DNA from: Escherichia coli 042
GTDB lineage: Bacteria > Pseudomonadota > Gammaproteobacteria > Enterobacterales > Enterobacteriaceae
Direction: 5' to 3' (one strand)
Assembly (NCBI RefSeq): GCF_000027125.1
Contig: NC_017626.1
Length of the DNA stretch: 64,000 bases
This document shows, in pieces, positions 27,340 to 38,255 of this stretch. Both the position numbers and the translations under genes were made by a program. Position 1 is the first letter of the stretch, and every line of letters begins with the position of its first letter. The notes under the pieces were generated by a model. The model saw nothing but the letters and a program-made list of their open reading frames with translations, was not told where the DNA came from and made no database searches.

Positions 27340-29997
27340 ATGGAAAATTCGGCAGCCCTGTTACGTCGTCTTAATCATTACTGTGCCCGTGCACTGGAAG
27401 GCGCAGCCTCCCTTTGCCAGACCCGGGCCCATGCGGAAATCACCCCGGAGCACTGGTTACTGAAACTGCTGGAGCAGGGGGAAGGAGACCTTACCGTGCT
27501 GGGCAGGCGTTATGACTGGGATATGGACGCGATATGGCAGTCGCTGCTCGGCTGGCTGGATAACCAGCCCCGTAGCGTACGCAGTCGCCCGCAGCTTGCG
27601 CAGTCCCTGAATGCTCTGCTGAAACAGGCCTGGATGGTGGCCTCATTACAGGGAGAAGAACATATCCGCAGCGTGCATCTGCTGGGTGCCCTGACGGAAA
27701 ATCCGCACCTGGTTCGCTGTGACGGGCTGTGGCCTCTGCTGACACTGAGTCAGAGCCAGTTGCAGCGTCTGTCCCCGCTGCTGGATGCGCAGTCTGATGA
27801 GTGTCCGGAGACGTTACAGGATGCAGAGCCTGTGCTGCCTCAGGGAGACAGTGTGACCTTTATCGGGCGCCCTGTCGGTGCGGATACGGCAGGTATACCG
27901 TCAGGTGACCTGCCGCCGGTGTTACAGGGTGCGCTGGATAAATTCACCCGGGACATCACGGCCAGCGCGAGAGAGGGGAAAATTGACCCGGTATCGGGAC
28001 GCGATACGGAAATCCGTCAGATGGTGGATATTCTCTCCCGCCGTCGCAAGAATAACCCGATTCTGGTGGGGGACCCCGGTGTGGGGAAAACGGCTCTGGT
28101 GGAAGGGCTCGCCCTGCGTATTGTGGAAGGTAACGTACCAGAATCTCTCAGACCCGTCACCCTGCGCACCCTTGACCTCGGCCTGCTGCAGGCCGGTGCC
28201 GGCGTGAAAGGTGAATTTGAACAGCGTCTGAAAAACGTGATTGATGCCGTGCAGCTGTCACCGGCTCCTGTACTGCTGTTTATAGATGAAGCCCATACCC
28301 TTATCGGTGCCGGTAATCAGGCCGGTGGCGCGGATGCGGCCAACCTGCTGAAGCCTGCGCTGGCGCGAGGCGAACTGCGCACCATTGCTGCCACCACCTG
28401 GTCTGAGTACAAACAATACCTGGAACGTGACGCGGCTCTGGAGCGGCGTTTTCAGATGGTCAAAGTGGACGAGCCGGATGATGAGACGGCCTGTCTGATG
28501 CTGCGCTCCCTGAAATCCCGTTATGCGGAACATCATAACGTGCATATCACCGATGAGGCAGTACGTGCTGCCGTCACACTCTCGCGCCGTTATCTGACAG
28601 AACGTCAGTTACCGGACAAGGCCGTTGACCTGCTTGATACTGCTGCTGCCCGTGTGCGGATGAGCCTCGACACGGTGCCGGAACAGCTGACCCGAATCCG
28701 TTCACAGCTCGCTTCCCTCGGTATGGAAAAACAGGCACTGCTGGAAGATATTGCCGTTGGTCATCAGAATCACGGCGAACGCCTGTCTGCCATTGAGCAG
28801 GAAGAGAACGTGCTGATGACAGCACGTGATGACCTGGAGCAGCAGTACGCCCGTGAGTGCGAACTCACCGGTGAGTTACTTGAAAGCCGCAGCGATATTT
28901 CCCGCCAGAGTGAGACACATCACCTGCAGCAGGCACTGCACGACATTCAGCAGAATCAGCCCCTGCTCAGTGTGGATGTTGACGTACGCACCGTTGCCGG
29001 TGTGGTCGCGGACTGGACCGGAGTGCCGTTATCCTCACTGATGAAGGATGAACAGACGGAACTGCTGCATCTGGAAAAGGATATCGGCAGACGGGTGGTC
29101 GGACAGGACGTGGCACTGGAATCCATTGCACAGCGTCTGCGTGCGGCGAAAACGGGTCTGACATCCGGTAACGGCCCCCAGGAGGTGTTCCTGCTGGTCG
29201 GCCCCAGTGGTGTGGGAAAAACCGAAACGGCACTGGCGCTGGCAGATGTGATGTACGGCGGCGAAAAATCACTGATTACCATCAATCTGTCGGAATATCA
29301 GGAGCCCCATACGGTTTCCCAGCTTAAGGGTTCACCGCCCGGGTACGTGGGATACGGTCAGGGGGGTATTCTGACGGAAGCTGTACGTAAGCGCCCTTAC
29401 AGCGTGGTGCTGCTGGATGAAGTGGAAAAGGCCCACCGGGATGTGCTGAATCTGTTCTACCAGGTGTTTGACCGGGGCTTTATGCGCGACGGTGAGGGGC
29501 GTGAAATTGACTTCCGTAATACGGTCATTCTGATGACCTCCAATCTGGGCAGTGACCTTCTGATGCAGCAACTGAGCGAAAAGCCGGAGACAACGGAATC
29601 GGAGCTGCATGAGCTTATCCGTCCACTGCTGCGCGACCACTTCCAGCCAGCACTGCTTGCCCGTTTCCAGACCGTGATTTACCGTCCGCTGACACCGTCT
29701 GCTATGCGCACCATTGTGGAGATGAAGCTTGCACAGGTCTGCGAACGCCTGCACTGCCATTATGGGCTGAGCACATCGGTTGATGAACGTGTGTACGATG
29801 CCCTGACATCCGCCTGCCTGCTGCCGGATACGGGCGCCCGGAATGTGGAGAGTCTGCTGAACCAGCAACTGCTGCCGGTACTGAGCCGGCAGTTGCTGAG
29901 CCATATGGCCGCGAAGCAGAAACCGCAGGCGCTGGCTCTGGCATGGAGTGACGAAGACGGTATGGTGATTGAGCTGCGGCAGGAATGCGCGTTATGA
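27340..29997 (+). CDS. clpV: T6SS AAA+ ATPase ClpV (TssH); alternative GTG start at 27331
   Basis: Two AAA modules with Walker A GDPGVGKT and GPSGVGKT; Clp N-domain; 885 aa. Confidence 0.92.
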
Positions 29998-30560
29998 CCG
30001 GCTATGGCAGAAATCAGGACGCTGGCGCAGGTAAAAATCAAAGGGAAGAAGGCTCATTGCGGTTACTGACGCCGGGAGAGATTGCGCTGGCGAGGCTGGT
30101 ATTCAGGTTGACAATCCCTTATGAAAAGGTCTGGATCCACCATGACAGTTTTCTGCCTTTTGGTCTTCAGAATAAGCAAACTGCCATGCCCCCCGATGGT
30201 AAGATTTATTTCCGTGAGCACTATCGGGATGATTATTCACTCAGCGTTCCCTTTTATCAGCATATGTTTATTCATGAAATGGCGCATGTCTGGCAGCGTG
30301 AAAAGGGAATGAATGTCATCGGTCGGGGGATGTTCAGTTGGGCGGTGAATTACCGTTATGTTCTGGACGGGCGTCTGTTAAGCGAATATCCCATGGAGCA
30401 GCAGGCACAAATTATTGCTGATCATTTTACTTTGCAGGCTGAAGGATACGGGACATGGTGTGATATGAGAAGGGACGGTGATATCACACTGGACGGAAAT
30501 ATGTCTGAGTATGTTATTCGCAGCCTGTATACCAGCACGTTGCGGGGGTTCCCATGGTAA
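29994..30560 (+). CDS. HExxH zincin-like protein (DUF4157-like), candidate T6SS-associated effector or accessory protein
   Basis: Motif FIHEMAHVWQ preceded by VWIHHD and GKIYFREHY; start overlaps clpV stop (also possible at 29985). Confidence 0.5.
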   Translation: MTGYGRNQDAGAGKNQREEGSLRLLTPGEIALARLVFRLTIPYEKVWIHHDSFLPFGLQNKQTAMPPDGKIYFREHYRDDYSLSVPFYQHMFIHEMAHVWQREKGMNVIGRGMFSWAVNYRYVLDGRLLSEYPMEQQAQIIADHFTLQAEGYGTWCDMRRDGDITLDGNMSEYVIRSLYTSTLRGFPW

Positions 30561-31096
30561 AAATAAGAGCCTTTCGTTATCGTTCTGCTTTACTGCTCTG
30601 TCTGACGTTACTGACAGGATGCCCCGGACGCGGGGATTATTATCGGTTTGATGAAACAGTAACGGTCAGCACAAGAGGCGACAATGTGTGTTTCAGTGTC
30701 CCGGAGCCAGAGGACTACCAGCCAGTCAGCGTTTCCATCGCTCCACGGGGAACCCGATTCAGGGAGCGGCAAATTACATCTGAACCCTCGCTTCGTATCG
30801 TGAACGGCCAGCTGTGCATTCCGCCTTCATTCTGTCTTTTTCCTGATAAAGGCCAGTTCATTGTCAGGTCTGTTCTGCACTCTGAGCGCGATAAGGACAC
30901 ACCGCGCATCATGGTTGCCGGCATAGAGATTGCCGACGGGTGTATTTTCGATATCCCGCTTAATGACATGGAGGTCGTGAGGCCATACGGTGAGCTGAAA
31001 AGCAGTAATGTTCAGACTGACCAGAGCGAACGTCATGGTCCCTGCAAATACCCTTTCAGAGCTGTTCGTGGAGTGATAAATCATGAATCTCACTGA
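30554..31096 (+). CDS. Predicted lipoprotein (possible cognate immunity protein)
   Basis: Signal peptide with lipobox LLTGC; overlaps preceding gene end and vgrG start. Confidence 0.5.
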   Translation: MVKIRAFRYRSALLLCLTLLTGCPGRGDYYRFDETVTVSTRGDNVCFSVPEPEDYQPVSVSIAPRGTRFRERQITSEPSLRIVNGQLCIPPSFCLFPDKGQFIVRSVLHSERDKDTPRIMVAGIEIADGCIFDIPLNDMEVVRPYGELKSSNVQTDQSERHGPCKYPFRAVRGVINHESH

Positions 31097-33608
31097 CTCC
31101 CTGCAAAATGTTTTATCCGGGGTGGGAACCCTGAACCGCTACAGACTGGATATACCTTCCTGCCCGTCATCGCTGGATGTTGAAGATTTCAGCGGAACTG
31201 AAGGCATAAGTAAGATTTACCGGTATGACATCATTTTTACCAGTACGGACAGGTATCCTGATGCTGCCTGGTTCCTGCGTAAATCCGCAACCCTGATAAT
31301 GGGAACCGGATTACTGGAAAGCCTGACTGAACAGAAAAAAGTGCACGGTGTTATTACTGATTTCAGACGTATTTCTGGCTCTGAGGACCAGGCACAATAC
31401 CGGATCACACTTAAACCTTTCATTTCCCTGCTGGATAAACAGTTCCGTACACACCGTTTTTTCGTTAATAAATCAGTGCCTGAGGTGGTGGAGCAAATCC
31501 TGACGGAACACGGGCTGAAAGGCTGGGAGTATGAGTTCAGCCTCAAAAGGACATATCCGAAGCGCGAACAGATTAACCAGTATCAGGAAAGCGATCTGAG
31601 ATTTATCCAGCGCCTGCTGGCAGAAGTGGGCATTTTTTACTTCTTTACGTTGCACCCGGATGCGCAGACAGAGGTGATCCACTTCGGTGACGTCCAGGCG
31701 GCGTTGATATTTGATAAAACACTGCCCGTTAACAGCCCGTCCGGTATGAGTGACAGTGGCACAGACTCAGTATGGGCATTGAATGTGGAGCACCGGGTGG
31801 TGGAAAGCCGTGTTATCACGAACGACTATAACCACCGCGAGGCCCAGAACATACTGATGTCCGTACCGGCGGACATGACCCGTGGAGAAGGTTACGACAC
31901 CAGTTATGGCGAGGTTTATCATTACCGGCCACGCCATACAGAAAGGGGCGATAAAATTGACCCTGCGCCGGAGACGGCTAACTTCTGGGCCCGGCTCGAT
32001 CACGAGCGTTTTCTGGCTGAGCAAACACGTATCACAGGTAAAAGCACCGATGCCAGTCTGTTACCGGCACAGGTGCTGACTATTACTGACAGTACTCCAC
32101 CAGTGTTGCCTGCACCGTTACAGGAGCCGGTTCTGCTCACGCAGCTTCTGTTCACCGGTAGCCGGAAATCTGCGCTACAGGTGATGCTGAGTGCTGTTCC
32201 TTACAGCGAGATTGTCTGCTGGCGACCACCGTTACTTACTCGTCCGAAAATCACCGGGACCATGACGGCCCGTGTGACCAGTGCAAAAGAAGGGGATATC
32301 TACGCCTGGCAGGATGCTTCAGGCATGTACCGGGTGAAATTTGATGCTGACCGTGATGATAAAAATCCGGGACAGGAAAGTATGCCGGTACGTCTGGCCA
32401 AACCCTACAGTGGTGATGCTTATGGTTTTCATTTTCCGCTGATTCAGGGAACGGAAGTGGCCATTGCTTTTGAGGAAGGTGATCCGGATCGTCCCTATAT
32501 AGCGCATGCCCTGCATGATTCACGTCATGTTGATCACGTTACCGATAAGAACGGTACGCGCAATGTTATCCGTACGCCGGCAAATAACAAGTTGCGGATG
32601 GAGGACAAACGCGGTGAGGAGCATATCAAGCTCAGTACCGAGTATGGCGGTAAGACACAACTTAATCTTGGCCATAACGTTGATGCCTCCCGGGAACTCA
32701 GGGGAGAAGGCGCTGAGCTGAGGACTGATGACTGGATAAGTATCCGGGGAGGAAAAGGAATATTTATCAGTGCAGATATGCAGCCTCAGGCACAAGGAAA
32801 GATGCTGGATATGGATGAAGCTATCCGCCAATTGGAGCAGGCATTATCTCTGGCCCGAAGTATGGCGAAGGCCGCAACTGCTGCAAATGCTACTCAGGGA
32901 GATATAAGTTGTCAGCAACGGTTGAATGCATCACTAACAGATCTCACTGCGCCGGGAATGCTGTTGCATGCTCCTGATGGGATTGGCATGGTTAGTGCGC
33001 GGGCGTTACGAATTGCTTCAGGTAGTGAAAGCGTGGGCATAATGTCGGGAGATAACACTGATATTACTGCCGGGCAGTCATTTACAGTTGTAGCAGAAGG
33101 TGCTGTTAGCCTGTTGAGCAGAAACCAGGGGATGCAACTGTTAGCAGCAAAAGGGCGGGTAAATATTCAGGCTCAAAGTGACGATTTGTCAATGAGTTCC
33201 CAACAGAATCTTGATATTCAAAGTTCTGAGGGCAAAGTGACTGTTTCTGCTAATCAGGAACTGATACTGGCATGTGGTGGAGCTTATATCAAACTAAGCG
33301 GTGGAAATATTGAGCTGGGATGCCCGGGACAGATTCTGTTAAAAAGCACGAATATGCAGAAGATGGGACCAACAAGTCTTGATATTGCGTCTGTTGAAAT
33401 GCCGCGAGGGTTTGGGGGCGGTTTTATTCTTACCGATGAAGCGGGAGTGCCGCAACCTTCGACGCCTTATCGATTAACAACGGCTGAAGGTGATATTCTA
33501 CAGGGGATCACCGATGAAAATGGTAAAACAGCGCCAGTCAACACCTCCATTCCGTCAGTAGTAAAAGTTGAGTTTGGGAAGGTAAAAATTCATGGAGAAA
33601 CAGAATGA
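31083..33608 (+). CDS. vgrG: T6SS spike protein VgrG (TssI) with C-terminal extension
   Basis: 841 aa; gp27/gp5-like core and C-terminal extension; followed directly by lipase effector gene. Confidence 0.9.
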   Translation: MNLTDSLQNVLSGVGTLNRYRLDIPSCPSSLDVEDFSGTEGISKIYRYDIIFTSTDRYPDAAWFLRKSATLIMGTGLLESLTEQKKVHGVITDFRRISGSEDQAQYRITLKPFISLLDKQFRTHRFFVNKSVPEVVEQILTEHGLKGWEYEFSLKRTYPKREQINQYQESDLRFIQRLLAEVGIFYFFTLHPDAQTEVIHFGDVQAALIFDKTLPVNSPSGMSDSGTDSVWALNVEHRVVESRVITNDYNHREAQNILMSVPADMTRGEGYDTSYGEVYHYRPRHTERGDKIDPAPETANFWARLDHERFLAEQTRITGKSTDASLLPAQVLTITDSTPPVLPAPLQEPVLLTQLLFTGSRKSALQVMLSAVPYSEIVCWRPPLLTRPKITGTMTARVTSAKEGDIYAWQDASGMYRVKFDADRDDKNPGQESMPVRLAKPYSGDAYGFHFPLIQGTEVAIAFEEGDPDRPYIAHALHDSRHVDHVTDKNGTRNVIRTPANNKLRMEDKRGEEHIKLSTEYGGKTQLNLGHNVDASRELRGEGAELRTDDWISIRGGKGIFISADMQPQAQGKMLDMDEAIRQLEQALSLARSMAKAATAANATQGDISCQQRLNASLTDLTAPGMLLHAPDGIGMVSARALRIASGSESVGIMSGDNTDITAGQSFTVVAEGAVSLLSRNQGMQLLAAKGRVNIQAQSDDLSMSSQQNLDIQSSEGKVTVSANQELILACGGAYIKLSGGNIELGCPGQILLKSTNMQKMGPTSLDIASVEMPRGFGGGFILTDEAGVPQPSTPYRLTTAEGDILQGITDENGKTAPVNTSIPSVVKVEFGKVKIHGETE

Positions 33609-35287
33609 CAAAATATCAGGGATATGACGTAACAGATGCCACCCATAAAACCAGTATTCATAATGACTGGAAAGTTGTTGTTGCAAAGAAAAAACCGGCG
33701 CGGGGTGTGACTTTAACTATTGGCATATTTTTCGATGGTACCGGAAACAATCGGGAGAATACAGCATCTCGCCTGATGAAATTTAATGAGTGTAGTGCAG
33801 CCAGACAGGGGGTAAATCAAAAAGATGCACAAAGCTGTGAGGACTTTCTTAAAGAAATTAACAAGAACAGTATCTCGAATGGCAGTTATCGTGGATATTA
33901 TTCCAATATTCACTGGCTTAATATACTCTATCATCCAGATCAGGTACTTAAAAAAGACCAGACGTCAGCTCAAATTAAGACTTACATTTCCGGGATAGGG
34001 ACTGCGGCTGGTGAAGCAGATTCAGTCATAGGCATGGGATTAGGCACCAGTATTCTGGATATATTTGAAGGTGTGGTGACGAAAACCGACGAGGCAATGG
34101 AACGAATCACCCAGGCGTTATCAGAATTTATGGGGTTCAATTTAAGTCCTGATTTTTGTATCGCAAAAATCCAGTTTGATGTTTTTGGTTTTAGCCGGGG
34201 AGCAGCGGCGGCAAGGCACTTTGCCAATCGGGTTATGGAACAGGATCCTGCTATAGCCAGAGCTATTGCTAAAGGGCTCAGAGGCGATTTTTATGATGGT
34301 AAACCTTCTGGTGAAGTACGTTTTCTGGGGCTTTTTGATACTGTCGCAGCTATTGGTGGAATCAGTAATTTCTTCGATATTAATGGACGTAGCAACCCGG
34401 GAGTAAAGCTGGAGTTGCGTCCTTCAGTCGCGAAGAAAGTTTTCCAGATTACTGCAATGAATGAATACCGATATAATTTCAGCCTGAACAGTATTAAAGG
34501 TATGTGGCCCGAACTGGCTTTACCGGGGGCGCATTCAGATATTGGAGGTGGTTACAATCCGGTAGGTTCACCTCTGCAGGAAAATGAAAGTCTGTTTCTG
34601 AGTTGCCCGGAATTTGAAATTGTCAGTGACGATACCAGAGAAATGGATACGCGAGTATACCGTAAAGCAGAGCAAGTCAGAAAAATGTTGATGACTCTGC
34701 CAGCCTTAAAACATATTTTGCCTCATGGAAAACTAACCACCAAAATTCGTTCCATAGGTGTGAACAACAGCAATCAACGTCGGGCTGGTGTGATACAAAA
34801 GCAGGTGGGAGCCGCAGTATTTTTTGAGCGTATGGCAGTACCTAATGACTGGGCTAATGTTTGCCTGCGTGTGATGCTGGATGCTGCTCAGGAAGCAGGG
34901 GTATTGTTTGAACCAATTCGACAAACAAATACTGAGTTACAACTTCCATCTGAACTAATATTTCTTGCTGACAAAGCCATTGCTCAGGGAAAAGCGGTAC
35001 GTTTGGGGCAAGAGCCTCAGGCTTTTACTGAGGAAGAGTTGTATATTATCGGAAAATACACCCATTGTTCCGCTAACTGGAATATTGAGTCTGATGGTAA
35101 TTTATGGGTGGATCCTACAACGGGAGAGATTTTTATCCATCGCTTTGGTCCTAAAGGTAATAAGGCGTTCGTTTTTCCGAATAAACCAAATGATCGCTGG
35201 ATTCGTTCTGTATGGTACATGGATGATCAGCAGCGATTGAATGATAACGCAGTAAAAAATACTAAAGTTATGATGTCTGGTGTTTAA
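33605..35287 (+). CDS. tle1: Tle1-family T6SS phospholipase effector (DUF2235 alpha/beta hydrolase)
   Basis: IGIFFDGTGNN motif and GFSRG (GxSxG) nucleophile elbow; ATGA overlap with vgrG. Confidence 0.85.
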   Translation: MTKYQGYDVTDATHKTSIHNDWKVVVAKKKPARGVTLTIGIFFDGTGNNRENTASRLMKFNECSAARQGVNQKDAQSCEDFLKEINKNSISNGSYRGYYSNIHWLNILYHPDQVLKKDQTSAQIKTYISGIGTAAGEADSVIGMGLGTSILDIFEGVVTKTDEAMERITQALSEFMGFNLSPDFCIAKIQFDVFGFSRGAAAARHFANRVMEQDPAIARAIAKGLRGDFYDGKPSGEVRFLGLFDTVAAIGGISNFFDINGRSNPGVKLELRPSVAKKVFQITAMNEYRYNFSLNSIKGMWPELALPGAHSDIGGGYNPVGSPLQENESLFLSCPEFEIVSDDTREMDTRVYRKAEQVRKMLMTLPALKHILPHGKLTTKIRSIGVNNSNQRRAGVIQKQVGAAVFFERMAVPNDWANVCLRVMLDAAQEAGVLFEPIRQTNTELQLPSELIFLADKAIAQGKAVRLGQEPQAFTEEELYIIGKYTHCSANWNIESDGNLWVDPTTGEIFIHRFGPKGNKAFVFPNKPNDRWIRSVWYMDDQQRLNDNAVKNTKVMMSGV

Positions 35288-35906
35288 CGCTACAGGATGA
35301 CAATACATGACCAGAGATAAAATCATTTTTATCGCACCATTATTGGCATTGTTAACTGGGTGTAATTCGGTTAGCTCACGGTATGCTGATTTGGATAAGA
35401 CTGAATGGGGTTATAAAAAATTACCCTATGATGAATGGAAATTTCTCTTTATTTATCCAAAGGCTCTGCCTGCGCTGGCCACCCAGGCGTTGATGGTGGA
35501 CGGGGAAGGTTATAAGACGACTTATCAGTATCTTGATAATACCGAGCCGAGTCAGGTCAGTGTAGGGCGCTGGAATGACCATCTGGGCGCGACTGAGTCG
35601 TATTATAACAAGGGGAAAGCATTACCCCTGATGTTGCGTTTTTGCTGGGATTCAATAATTGATAAAAAGAGTTATGAAACTCTGATTTTTTTTAAAAAAG
35701 GGACCTGGGAGCAGATGGTTACGCCTTACGCAGACAACCGCTGGAACGAAACCTATTATCGTTCAACGATGATTATTGGTCTGGCTCCTGAAGGGAAGGT
35801 AAGAGTCTGGCTGGGAGATCGCGGTAATCCGGTGGTACCTCAGTTGGATGCTAAAATTACTACAGTATCGGGTGATAAAATGAAGATGTGTAAGGGGGTT
35901 ACTAAA
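35238..35906 (+). repeat. Direct repeat copy 1 (~669 bp): last ~50 bp of tle1 plus most of tli1-a
   Basis: Matches 36059..36727 at a constant 821-bp offset; encoded proteins identical over ~200 aa. Confidence 0.8.
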
Positions 35907-35984
35907 AGTGATTTCTCATATGGATATGATGAAGATATTAAGGAGTTTATCAGAGATAAAACTTATCCTTACGGTAACTGGTGA
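35307..35984 (+). CDS. tli1: Tli1-like lipoprotein immunity protein, copy a
   Basis: Lipobox LLTGC; immediately downstream of tle1; 225 aa. Confidence 0.7.
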   Translation: MTRDKIIFIAPLLALLTGCNSVSSRYADLDKTEWGYKKLPYDEWKFLFIYPKALPALATQALMVDGEGYKTTYQYLDNTEPSQVSVGRWNDHLGATESYYNKGKALPLMLRFCWDSIIDKKSYETLIFFKKGTWEQMVTPYADNRWNETYYRSTMIIGLAPEGKVRVWLGDRGNPVVPQLDAKITTVSGDKMKMCKGVTKSDFSYGYDEDIKEFIRDKTYPYGNW

Positions 35985-36058
35985 CTCAAACCAGAATAAT
36001 GATGAGCATATAAAAAGAAAATCTAATTTTCATCTGGCGTAAAAAAACGGGCAATAGC

Positions 36059-36727
36059 TGAATGATAACGCAGTAAAAAATACTAAAGTTATGATGTCTG
36101 GTGTTTAACGCTACAGGATGACAATACATGACCAGAGATAAAATCATTTTTATCGCACCATTATTGGCATTGTTAACTGGGTGTAATTCGGTTAGCTCAC
36201 GGTATGCTGATTTGGATAAGACTGAATGGGGTTATAAAAAATTACCCTATGATGAATGGAAATTTCTCTTTATTTATCCAAAGGCTCTGCCTGCGCTGGC
36301 CACCCAGGCGTTGATGGTGGACGGGGAAGGTTATAAGACGACTTATCAGTATCTTGATAATACCGAGCCGAGTCAGGTCAGTGTAGGGCGCTGGAATGAC
36401 CATCTGGGCGCGACTGAGTCGTATTATAACAAGGGGAAAGCATTACCCCTGATGTTGCGTTTTTGCTGGGATTCAATAATTGATAAAAAGAGTTATGAAA
36501 CTCTGATTTTTTTTAAAAAAGGGACCTGGGAGCAGATGGTTACGCCTTACGCAGACAACCGCTGGAACGAAACCTATTATCGTTCAACGATGATTATTGG
36601 TCTGGCTCCTGAAGGGAAGGTAAGAGTCTGGCTGGGAGATCGCGGTAATCCGGTGGTACCTCAGTTGGATGCTAAAATTACTACAGTATCGGGTGATAAA
36701 ATGAAGATGTGTAAGGGGGTTACTAAA
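36059..36727 (+). repeat. Direct repeat copy 2 (~669 bp), including a fossil of the tle1 3' end upstream of tli1-b
   Basis: Sequence tgaatgataacgcagtaaaaaatactaaagttatgatgtctggtgtttaa (tle1 stop region) recurs before second tli1. Confidence 0.8.
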
Positions 36728-36805
36728 CATCCAGATGGATATGTTTATTACGGTGATACACCAGATTTTATCAAAGGGAAAATTTATCCCTACGGCAACT
36801 GGTGA
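36128..36805 (+). CDS. tli1: Tli1-like lipoprotein immunity protein, copy b (divergent C-terminal ~25 aa)
   Basis: Identical to copy a through ...KMKMCKGVTK, then diverges (HPDGYVYYGDTPDFIKGKIYPYGNW). Confidence 0.7.
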   Translation: MTRDKIIFIAPLLALLTGCNSVSSRYADLDKTEWGYKKLPYDEWKFLFIYPKALPALATQALMVDGEGYKTTYQYLDNTEPSQVSVGRWNDHLGATESYYNKGKALPLMLRFCWDSIIDKKSYETLIFFKKGTWEQMVTPYADNRWNETYYRSTMIIGLAPEGKVRVWLGDRGNPVVPQLDAKITTVSGDKMKMCKGVTKHPDGYVYYGDTPDFIKGKIYPYGNW

Positions 36806-36836
36806 CTCAAAGTGAAAATTTATTTTTGAGAGTATT

Positions 36837-37103
36837 ATGTCTAAAGGTTTTGTATTGCTTGGTGATAATACCACACATGGTGGTAAAGTTATTTCTGCAT
36901 CTTCAACCATGATTGTCGATGGTAAAAAAGTAGCTCTTGTTGGAGATATGGTTAGTTGCCCTGTTTCCGGACATGGTACCAATCCTATTGTGGAGGGCTC
37001 TCCTGAATGGATATCTGATGGAAGAGCTGTTGTGATTGATGGATGTAAATGTCTGTGTGGGTGTAAGGTTATATCCAGTGCACCGGAATGTGCAATAGGA
37101 TAA
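36837..37103 (+). CDS. PAAR-domain spike-tip protein
   Basis: 88 aa, Gly/Cys-rich (GDMVSCPVSGHG, CKCLCGCKV) typical of PAAR cone proteins. Confidence 0.75.
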   Translation: MSKGFVLLGDNTTHGGKVISASSTMIVDGKKVALVGDMVSCPVSGHGTNPIVEGSPEWISDGRAVVIDGCKCLCGCKVISSAPECAIG

Positions 37104-37106
37104 AAC

Positions 37107-38255
37107 ATGGGATGGAGCAGAACAAAATCATTATCAACAGAATTACCTCATAAACCATCAATGATGTTGTGGTTTATGACAGGGGCATTTATGGCTGTTG
37201 TTGGTGCTCTGTTGTTTATTATCCGGGCATCAGAATATGTGAAAGCATTAAATAATTTCAGTATCTGGTGGCTTGCATTGACTCCTCCGGGGTGCTGGTT
37301 TTTCCTGTTTTGCCTGCGACACTGGCAGTGGAGCAACCAGATGGATGAACATTTGTTTCTTAAAAAAGAGGGGGAGTATGCTCAGAAACAGTGGGAATCC
37401 TGGGCCGAAAGGTATCTTGTTATTACTGCCAGTTGTGTTTATTTGCCTGATAAAATAACGGTAGCTACTCTTTGTGATGAATTGCCTCTGCAGTACGGCC
37501 TTGTAAAGAAAATAGATTATCTTTCTGACAGTGGGCATAAGGTTGAAGCCTCTTTACGTGTCTTGCTTAGGGAGATAACGGATAAATTTTGTCAGTTACC
37601 TGCCGCTCTCCCTGTAAATGTGACGCTGATAACCGATCAGCCTGATTCTGAAATCAGATCTGCTTTTGTTTCTGCATGGGAAGCGTTATTTCCCCAACGC
37701 GTCGTTCCTGACAATATCGAGGTTACTCCTGACTTTTCCATGGGGTGGGTTGATGAGCGTCTGAAACAACCAGTGCTGACTGTGGATTTGATACTGGTAA
37801 TACAGCTTAATGGGGGAAATACATACTCTGACGGACTGGCTGCACTTTTGTTGACCAGCGATGATGTTGCGCAAAAATATAATCTGTCGCATTCAGCCCG
37901 TCTGCTACGCCCGATGTCGCTGGATATCAACAAGTTTAATGATGAATTCACACTTTTCCTTGAAACCCAGACAGCAGCCTGTCGTACCGCTCGTGTACTG
38001 GGAGACTGTTATCACTGGGAAAAGATTGCTGCACCGCTGATGACTATTGGAAACCAGTATGGTGCCGGATGGGAACCGTCCGGACGTATGTTACTGGAAA
38101 AATGGTGCGGTATCCCGGGACCTGCTGCTCCGTGGCTGCTTACTGCTCTGGCAGCCGATCTGGTCTGTCTTGGTAATGATTCTCTCCTGACTTTATTCTC
38201 ATCCGGAGAAGAACATTTTATCAGTACTGTTACATCAGGAAACCAGAATGAATAA
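37107..38255 (+). CDS. Hypothetical membrane protein between PAAR and tssM
   Basis: 382 aa; two N-terminal TM helices; tightly packed with flanking genes. Confidence 0.5.
   Translation: MGWSRTKSLSTELPHKPSMMLWFMTGAFMAVVGALLFIIRASEYVKALNNFSIWWLALTPPGCWFFLFCLRHWQWSNQMDEHLFLKKEGEYAQKQWESWAERYLVITASCVYLPDKITVATLCDELPLQYGLVKKIDYLSDSGHKVEASLRVLLREITDKFCQLPAALPVNVTLITDQPDSEIRSAFVSAWEALFPQRVVPDNIEVTPDFSMGWVDERLKQPVLTVDLILVIQLNGGNTYSDGLAALLLTSDDVAQKYNLSHSARLLRPMSLDINKFNDEFTLFLETQTAACRTARVLGDCYHWEKIAAPLMTIGNQYGAGWEPSGRMLLEKWCGIPGPAAPWLLTALAADLVCLGNDSLLTLFSSGEEHFISTVTSGNQNE

Follow-up and report, generated by a model that had tools for sequence, protein, structure and literature searches.

Tail classes of duplicated tli1 immunity genes and a covarying patch of the Tle1 effector in Escherichia coli

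Why should a bacterium keep, behind the gene for a single secreted phospholipase, two immunity genes that are the same through 200 codons and differ only near their ends? The locus that raises this question lies in a 64,000-nt stretch of Escherichia coli 042 (contig NC_017626.1, assembly GCF_000027125.1), the whole of which is here called the window, and its gene order is vgrG, tle1, tli1-A, tli1-B, PAAR, a 382-aa open reading frame (ORF), tssM and tssA. The part vgrG-tle1-tli1A-tli1B-PAAR is the effector-immunity module of a type VI secretion system (T6SS) of the Sci-1 type of enteroaggregative E. coli (EAEC). Sequence comparison favours an answer in which the C-terminal tails of Tli1 are probably matched by class to a short patch of Tle1, copy A being cognate to the class-E Tle1 encoded beside it and copy B guarding against Tle1 of another class, A.

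One body and two tails

The two copies were mapped by comparing the window with itself at an offset of 821 (Tandem Repeats Finder is silent here, the period being above its limit). At this period 669 nt recur with 0 mismatches (Table 1). The repeat starts 50 nt before the stop codon of tle1, which makes its unit the tle1 3′ end plus tli1, and since no further 20-mer is repeated on the + strand of the window, it is not a matter of chance. Past the 669 nt comes a 69-nt block with 28 differences, in register and without an indel, after which identity returns for 15 nt over the stop codon and is followed by mismatch at random level. The two proteins, of 225 aa each, are identical over residues 1-200 and have 13 differences, all in 201-219. 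The self-alignment thus agrees with the initial annotation, which had a direct repeat of ~669 bp at a period of 821 bp, the last ~50 bp of tle1 copied with tli1 (a 50-nt fossil, the last 16 codons of tle1, with 19 nt of intergenic sequence), and two lipoproteins alike for ~200 residues that then diverge, with DNA similarity back at the stop. The tandem duplication that it proposed stands as to the copying of tli1 with the fossil of the tle1 3′ end, and does not stand as a simple event. The ends of the two units are unequal, the last 152 nt of the 821-nt unit being unrepeated, and the 68-nt spacer that closes unit 1 has no counterpart after copy B (35991-36058 compared with 36812-36879 gives mismatch at random level). 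A search met this spacer nowhere else in E. coli genomes and in none of the loci examined in other genera; its best alignments are weak (z=3.6-4.7) and are to tli1 5′ or intergenic sequence of other genera. A scan of the inter-copy junction for promoters and terminators gave none above shuffled expectation.

The identity of the two proteins rests on Pfam, PDB and the names given by the Prokaryotic Genome Annotation Pipeline (PGAP), the hidden Markov models of NCBIfam having no match for either. Tle1 is aligned over all 560 residues with chain D of PDB 6SJL, the EAEC Sci-1 effector (1290 bits, with residues 414-503 identical), so that its fold is that of Tle1, and the GxSxG catalytic motif is present as GFSRG at 195-199. 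Tli1 matches Pfam DUF2931 (PF11153; E=1.4e-27, residues 37-223) and is encoded directly 3′ of the DUF2235 gene tle1 inside the vgrG-tle-tli-PAAR unit (31083-37103). Its signal peptide, MTRDKIIFIAPLLALLTGC, has the lipobox LLTGC, the same in both copies, with a weak match to LPAM_1. Seven complete genomes (BR1220, HH35 and NCTC9082 among them), in which the RefSeq names are 'Tle1-EAEC' and 'Tli1-EAEC', share a 3.3-kb stretch of the window at 100% identity, and in EAEC 55989 the stretch is near-identical. In EAEC 042 tle1 is EC042_4534, and PAAR is EC042_4537 (PMC10715212).

The locus is present in 42 of the 5426 complete E. coli genomes scanned, with 1-3 copies of tli1; 22 loci were compared by sequence, and genomes of identical score were given the same architecture. 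Duplication of tli1 is found in 33 of the 42, the two-copy form in ~29. Two haplogroups can be told apart by the last 25 codons, S (SDFSYGYDEDIKEFI[RK]DKTYPYGNW) and H (HPDGYVYYGDTPDFIKGKIYPYGNW), and the window has one of each (SDFSYGYDEDIKEF and HPDGYVYYGDTPDF, respectively). The architecture is S-H in 15 genomes, H-S in 12, H-H-S in four, H-H in two, a single H in seven and a single S in two, both tail classes being held by 31 of the 42. Between the classes 27-31 of 81 nt differ, and within a class only 1-4, across E. coli lineages. [In STEC2018-553 (locus L020, 301-1982) tle1 is annotated as frameshifted, a pseudogene, and a single H-tail tli1 is intact, so that immunity outlasts the toxin.]

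The 669-nt body behaves differently from the tails: copies that share a genome are 0-12 nt apart in it and copies of different genomes up to 23 nt, and one body haplotype bears S and H tails within a genome while haplotypes differ between lineages. The 100% identity over 669 nt is therefore a mark of homogenised bodies, not of the youth of the whole unit. The 143-nt junction between the copies (6 nt, the 68-nt spacer, the 50-nt fossil and 19 nt of intergenic sequence) is the same in S-H and H-S arrays, with 1-6 single nucleotide polymorphisms (SNPs), and for this reason the E. coli junction arose once. In strain F2_407 fossil and intergenic sequence co-vary with the real tle1 3′ end and its intergenic sequence. 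As judged from these comparisons, the body is under concerted evolution and is joined to a stable old dimorphism of tails, not to divergence after duplication. Of the two processes put forward by the initial annotation, gene conversion accordingly finds a place in the homogenised bodies; duplication followed by patchy divergence does not, the tails being pre-existing and deeply conserved classes that occur as single-copy alleles, in either order, and in other genera.

How widely the tails extend is seen among 461 DUF2931 homologues, all of which carry PF11153. In the close family (65-82% identity) the Tli1 tails fall into three discrete classes, S (KSDFSYGYD.DIK.FI), H (KHP[DN]GYVYYGDTP.FI) and F ([ND]FP.GY.YTK.TKAFI). 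All three are spread across Enterobacterales. Behind tle1, the 18 loci taken from metagenomes or other genera have 1-6 tli1 genes in tandem, of mixed S, H and F class, for instance S-H in Buttiauxella, H-S-F in Serratia marcescens, H-F-F-F-F-S in S. plymuthica and F-H-F-S in Yersinia proxima. S and H bodies of Buttiauxella are 98% identical and F and S bodies of Cedecea 97%; the H tail, on the other hand, agrees in 16/16 residues on bodies of 79-85% identity (those of E. coli, Buttiauxella, Klebsiella sp. and Serratia), and H tails are also found on homologues only ~47% identical overall. Body similarity is, on the evidence of these alignments, decoupled from tail class. From one genus to another 17-18 of the 18 tail residues are kept, the tails being better conserved than the protein body, while synonymous changes affect 0.33-0.44 of the identical-residue codons, equal to the body. 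This combination argues for old classes under strong purifying selection and not for recent transfer. Truncated tli1 remnants stand at the end of several other-genus arrays.

The tail class and its counterpart in Tle1

E. coli Tle1 alleles are ~99% identical save for two sharply bounded dimorphic patches, aa 107-125 (patch 1) and aa 436-455 (patch 2), which are independent of each other, all four combinations occurring in E. coli. Patch 2 is found as class E (motif EPIRQTNTELQLP), as class A (APIDPKNPDMNLS) and, in other genera, as class Q (IQE..E.Y.LP.ELK..C), and the adjacent tli1 tails are S, H and F, respectively. The Tle1 of the window is of class E, like the structurally characterised EAEC protein, and class A is present in 24 of the 42 locus-bearing E. 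coli genomes. The tail class of the tle1-adjacent tli1 matches the patch-2 class in 18 of 19 modules, and a matching class is present in the array in 19 of 19; a match of 18/19 is reached by 1 of 200,000 shuffles when any of six mappings is allowed. Class-E Tle1 adjoins an S tail in 6/6 S-first modules, class-A Tle1 is beside an H tail in 5/6 H-first modules of other taxa, and in class-A E. coli (504239, 1105, O22:H8 and others) the tle1-adjacent copy has the H tail.

An unbiased scan of 21 pairs, in which columns were ranked by class prediction (a ranking of column pairs by normalised mutual information was dropped as dominated by singleton columns), leads to the same two segments from either side. 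Of 310 variable Tle1 columns, the 12 that best predict tail class are all in 436-455; of 116 variable Tli1 columns, the 9 that best predict patch class are all in 200-213. On a Tle1 tree built with the patch masked, 11 changes are needed for patch class, 11 for tail class and again 11 for the two taken jointly, which means that the switches coincide and have happened many times. One such switch can be followed at the nucleotide level. Strains TUM1881 (E; S-H) and 1105 (A; H-S) differ at 27/62 nt of the patch block and 28/69 nt of the tail block, at 2 of the 934 nt that separate the blocks and at 8 other sites within 2.4 kb; with the intervening stretch near-identical, a single recombination tract cannot explain the pairing. 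On the metagenomic contig L041 there are two tle1 paralogues with the same patch 1, of which the class-E one is followed by an S tail and the class-A one by an H tail.

For replication, metagenomes were scanned by a DNA pattern covering FCWDSxIDKK, an invariant motif, which gave 64 further tle1 modules, 44 of them with distinct patch/tail combinations, whose Tle1 is 36-96% identical to that of E. coli. As single-linkage clustering of patches and tails chained the classes together, a clustering-free Mantel test was taken as the main statistic. Among the 44 modules patch and tail similarity correlate (r=0.37; partial r=0.32 given backbone identity; 0/5000 permutations), so that the covariation goes beyond shared ancestry, as in a co-evolving toxin-immunity pair. 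New pairings are of 'ILS..KEL' patches with IDF[SN]Y tails that have a 4-residue insertion, of 'I[LQ]PKD.N.SL' patches with RFS.GYEY tails, and of 'EIE.T.E' patches with SDFSYGYSN tails. The link to immunity specificity at which the initial annotation hinted is backed by this covariation.

Patch 1 was considered as the partner of the tail and rejected, there being H-H arrays with patch-1 S and continuous variation of the patch in other genera. It also has no association with the last ~300 nt of vgrG, where the DNA is near-identical whatever patch 1 may be.

Table 1. Positions in the window of the module, its repeat and its variable segments
Feature	Position	Strand	Basis or remark
vgrG, 841 aa, spike protein carrying Tle1	31083..33608	+	TIGR01646/TIGR03361 matches; Vgr family annotation in identical genomes
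tle1, T6SS phospholipase effector, 560 aa, DUF2235	33605..35287	+	PDB 6SJL chain D match; PGAP name Tle1-EAEC
Tle1 patch 1, aa 107-125; window allele ILYHPDQVLKKDQTSAQIK, other allele SLYVADQTLLESQVEAQIQ	33923..33979	+	~28 differences/100 nt vs ~1% elsewhere
Tle1 patch 2, aa 436-456, class E (EPIRQTNTELQLPSELIFLA); putative immunity-specificity determinant	34911..34972	+	27/62 nt differ E vs A, backbones near-identical
First copy of the 669-nt repeat, holding the tle1 3′ end, the intergenic region and tli1-A codons 1-200	35238..35906	+	exact match to 36059-36727
tli1 copy A, DUF2931 outer-membrane lipoprotein, S-class tail	35307..35984	+	Pfam, lipobox, PGAP name Tli1-EAEC
Tail block A, aa 201-223, class S: SDFSYGYDEDIKEFIRDKTYPYG	35907..35975	+	sequence comparison
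Shared 3′ anchor over stop codon, 15 nt	35976..35990	+	identical to 36797-36811; only short homology 3′ of the tails
AT-rich spacer, 68 nt, 32% GC, confined to inter-copy junction	35991..36058	+	1-6 SNPs in all E. coli arrays, either tail order
Fossil of last 50 nt of tle1 (LNDNAVKNTKVMMSGV, then stop), non-coding	36059..36108	+	in-frame TAG directly upstream
Duplicated intergenic region, 19 nt, with tli1 ribosome binding site (RBS; AGGA)	36109..36127	+	identical to 35288-35306
tli1 copy B, intact; same body as copy A, tail of class H	36128..36805	+	ORF and tail comparison
Tail block B, aa 201-223, class H: HPDGYVYYGDTPDFIKGKIYPYG	36728..36796	+	16/16 aa identical in Buttiauxella, Klebsiella sp., Serratia
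PAAR spike-tip gene, 88 aa, right edge of array	36837..37103	+	NF033420 match

A possible specificity code and its alternatives

What these features would amount to is a Tli1 in two parts, a conserved DUF2931 beta-sandwich body (residues ~20-200) and a C-terminal tail cassette of ~18 residues between the conserved anchors MCKGVT and FIxGKTYPYGNW. The number of cassette classes would be small (the close family has S, H and F, and distant relatives have others); the classes would be ancient and discrete, each paired with a class of the 20-residue loop/helix patch at aa 436-455 of Tle1, and from the sequences we infer that tail and patch touch and set specificity. Copy A, beside tle1 and with its S tail, would be the cognate immunity to the cell's own class-E Tle1, which is consistent with EC042_4535 alone being protective; copy B, with its H tail, would be an extra immunity neutralising class-A Tle1 fired by other E. 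coli, the array then covering both Tle1 classes that circulate in the species. Gene conversion and unequal crossing-over may keep the bodies identical and yield the 1-, 2- and 3-copy forms, with homogenisation halting at the tails, where a divergence of 41% would block it and selection would preserve each class. An unequal crossover that keeps the last tail could leave collapsed arrays, as which MLI121 and MLI114 (both E with H) and likewise strain 48 (A with S) may be understood.

The hypothesis that these segments set specificity is new and, on the covariation described, statistically well supported. To a wider proposal we give about an even chance. It is that Tle1 436-455 and Tli1 201-218 form a portable two-part specificity code of few ancient classes (E/S, A/H, Q/F, and more in distant relatives and on plasmids), kept across Enterobacterales by frequency-dependent selection. 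The tli1 arrays would then be immune repertoires with bodies homogenised by gene conversion and tails protected, and a 13-residue swap would be enough to retarget immunity. AlphaFold2 (AF2) gives good folds for a Tle1-(G4S)6-Tli1 fusion, with a predicted template modelling score (pTM) of 0.75, and for Tli1 alone, with a predicted local distance difference test score (pLDDT) of 81.8. In these models the Tli1 tail is a loop plus short helix of medium confidence and the Tle1 patch a confident loop into a helix.

Several observations weigh against matched classes as the basis of specificity. Among close-backbone metagenomic pairs 15/79 are discordant (L124, L129 and L056/L114 are clear exceptions), and in one Enterobacter contig the cognate tli1 copy is in second place. 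The strongest case against strict specificity is made by three E. coli genomes that have an intact tle1 with only a non-cognate tail: MLI121 (locus L002) and MLI114 combine class-E Tle1 with a single H-tail tli1, and strain 48 (locus L006) combines class-A Tle1 with a single S-tail one, so that either specificity is not absolute or these strains bear a cost. Arrays that repeat a class (F-F-F-F, H-H) show that dosage or finer subclasses matter too. The AF2 pLDDT of the tails is about the same with Tle1 (66/72) and without it (66/64). The model also gives no account of the one junction that S-H and H-S arrays have in common.

Copy number ranging from 1 to 3, the same-class repeats (H-H, H-H-S and F-F-F-F), the survival of three genomes on the 'wrong' tail alone, the indifference of AF2 tail pLDDT to Tle1, and the requirement in A. 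hydrophila for both DUF2931 proteins together (PMC7245790) would all suit an array that is there for redundancy or dosage. Both copies would in that case neutralise the same Tle1 and the array would raise expression, with the tails serving stability or envelope interactions and the patch-tail link being a matter of co-inherited neighbouring DNA. Such linkage, however, fails for two blocks of 41-44% divergence that switch jointly at least 11 times with 934 nt between them 99.8% identical; moreover only Tle1 columns 436-455 predict the tail, and most E. coli arrays (31/42 genomes) hold one tail per class, not two alike. Redundancy or dosage is for these reasons thought unlikely. Copy B might instead be a functionless, decaying relic, an orphan left after replacement of its effector, and the second copy has indeed been reported as truncated in the EAEC model strain (PMC13133936), just as truncated tli1 remnants close several other-genus arrays. 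But copy B, in the window as in the majority of E. coli genomes, is intact at 225 aa, with its own copy of the RBS and a body identical to that of copy A, and its H tail is under purifying selection across genera, which leaves decay a quite improbable explanation.

That some duplication-type event made the E. coli junction follows from the perfect 669-nt identity and the tle1 3′ fossil. A recent tandem duplication of tli1 in situ, within this lineage and with rapid local divergence of the C-terminus afterwards, is nevertheless very improbable, being refuted by tails that pre-exist as single-copy alleles and are near-identical in other genera; drift after duplication could not put 28 changes into 69 nt and none into 669 nt, and the end of unit 1, the spacer, is unrepeated after unit 2. 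Perfect repeats of 0.8 kb carry a general risk of being collapsed or expanded in assembly, and nothing more than this speaks for an artefact here: the junctions are consistent in dozens of independently closed genomes, and 1-, 2- and 3-copy variants are each recurrent, so that the chance of it is negligible.

Known systems, neighbouring genes and significance

The matching of tail to patch has to be set against what is known of this and similar systems. Duplication of tli1 has been reported before for EAEC 042, as EC042_4535/EC042_4536 (PMC7245790 and PMC13133936, citing Flaugnatti 2016). EC042_4535, the tle1-adjacent copy, protects alone against the class-E Tle1 of the model strain (PMC7245790), and it is for EC042_4535 only that 1:1 binding of Tli1 to Tle1 and phospholipase inhibition or prey protection are reported (PMC6730261, PMC7245790). 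The EAEC Sci-1 pair of PDB 6SJL is the same locus with the same proteins, Tle1 being identical across the patch and followed by a second tli1 and then PAAR (EC042_4537). The literature searched has the second copy as a duplicate that is truncated in the model strain, whereas copy B of the window is intact and differs only in its tail. No description of the modular tail classes and the matching Tle1 patch was found in that literature; the duplication itself is already known.

The orphan immunity arrays that effector displacement has formed in T6SS clusters of V. cholerae (Kirchberger et al. 2017, PMC5361080) are similar in having extra immunity genes 3′ of the cognate pair, with a displaced effector 3′ end ahead of the orphan, which resembles the cognate immunity of other strains; the benefit proposed is protection from kin with another effector. 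Here too the extra immunity gene is preceded by an effector 3′ remnant, the 50-nt fossil (36059-36108) before copy B, and in class-A E. coli, as in other genera, the copy beside tle1 is the one with the H tail. Separate foreign ancestry is, however, found for the tail only, the bodies being 100% identical and clustering by genome. The Vibrio genes are unrelated families acquired whole; the Tli1 copies share a homogenised body and differ in a cassette of ~18 residues, and the effector differs in a 20-residue patch only.

Conserved scaffolds with a short hypervariable specificity segment, co-evolving between toxin and immunity protein, are a feature of the colicin E DNase/Im, CdiA-CT/CdiI and Rhs-CT/RhsI systems, in which discrete specificity types are kept in populations and orphan modules occur. 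Tle1/Tli1 differs from these colicin, contact-dependent inhibition (CDI) and Rhs systems in fold and in toxin activity, and the Tli1 classes are very few, extremely conserved (the H tail is identical across genera) and at the extreme C-terminus of a lipoprotein. Several DUF2931 genes 3′ of DUF2235 effectors are also found in A. hydrophila (Tli1/Tli2; PMC7245790) and V. cholerae (Tli1tox-/Tli1tox+; PMC10395195), the V. cholerae paralogues being 80% identical and different in protection (PMC10395195). The paralogues of these two species diverge along their full length, however, and no specificity determinant has been mapped in them.

Related genes also occur in other settings. A complete DUF2235 + DUF2931 pair without vgrG is present on the 6683-bp mobilizable ColE1-like plasmid pS19_141-f (locus L042, 1734-4140), and the same pair is on IncF plasmids (pSTEC2018_166-a, locus L043, 2260-4666). 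It is 55% and 48% identical to Tle1 and Tli1, with the patch 'ILSSNKELALP' and a tail with a 4-residue insertion (IDFSYIKANGYDPFIRDF), and the hosts, STEC strains (E. coli that produce Shiga toxin), also have a chromosomal tle1-tli1. In Leclercia adecarboxylata (locus L032, 888-7000) and Yersinia massiliensis (locus L036, 1-5551) vgrG is separated from tle1 by the gene of a Lipase_3-domain effector and one further gene beside it. The Leclercia tle1 is cut to its C-terminal 327 aa and three tli1 genes still follow, which looks like displacement of an effector with its immunity array kept. In Kosakonia sp. H02 (locus L040, 4006-5678) DUF2931 genes stand beside PAAR with no tle1, an orphan immunity array in a T6SS cluster. 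An extra ORF of 163-187 aa without a Pfam match, absent from the E. coli cluster, occupies the gap between the last tli1 and PAAR in some other genera (L029, 5801-6355; L033, 7137-7628; L038, 5723-6214; L039, 5728-6219).

Within the window the 382-aa ORF between PAAR and tssM (37107-38255) has no Pfam or NCBIfam match; in most other-genus loci examined the same position is taken by a gene of 381-391 aa, also without a Pfam match. Upstream of vgrG are a 191-aa ORF (29985-30560) with an HExxH-like motif (FIHEMAHVWQ) and no Pfam or NCBIfam match and, overlapping it by 7 nt, a 180-aa lipoprotein (30554-31096) that matches DUF7480 and NF045617, 'putative T6SS immunity periplasmic lipoprotein'. The two are possibly a second effector-immunity pair of the cluster. 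DUF7480 genes are found at the same position in other genera (L034, L038).

Tle1/Tli1 of EAEC is a reference system for T6SS cargo effectors, and a search of PDB found neither a Tli1 structure to show how Tle1 is recognised nor a close solved relative of Tli1. The comparisons nominate one short segment in each partner as the specificity determinant, and nature supplies a minimal pair: two Tli1 proteins of one genome that differ by 13 tail residues, and toxin alleles that differ by a 20-residue patch. MLI121, MLI114 and strain 48 are natural test cases for whether tail class sets specificity. Were this to be refuted, the locus would be merely a known duplicated immunity gene. If it is true, it would explain why tli1 is so often found in arrays, with gene conversion and selection jointly keeping a shared scaffold with distinct 'keys', and T6SS compatibility between strains of E. 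coli and its relatives would be predictable from sequence.

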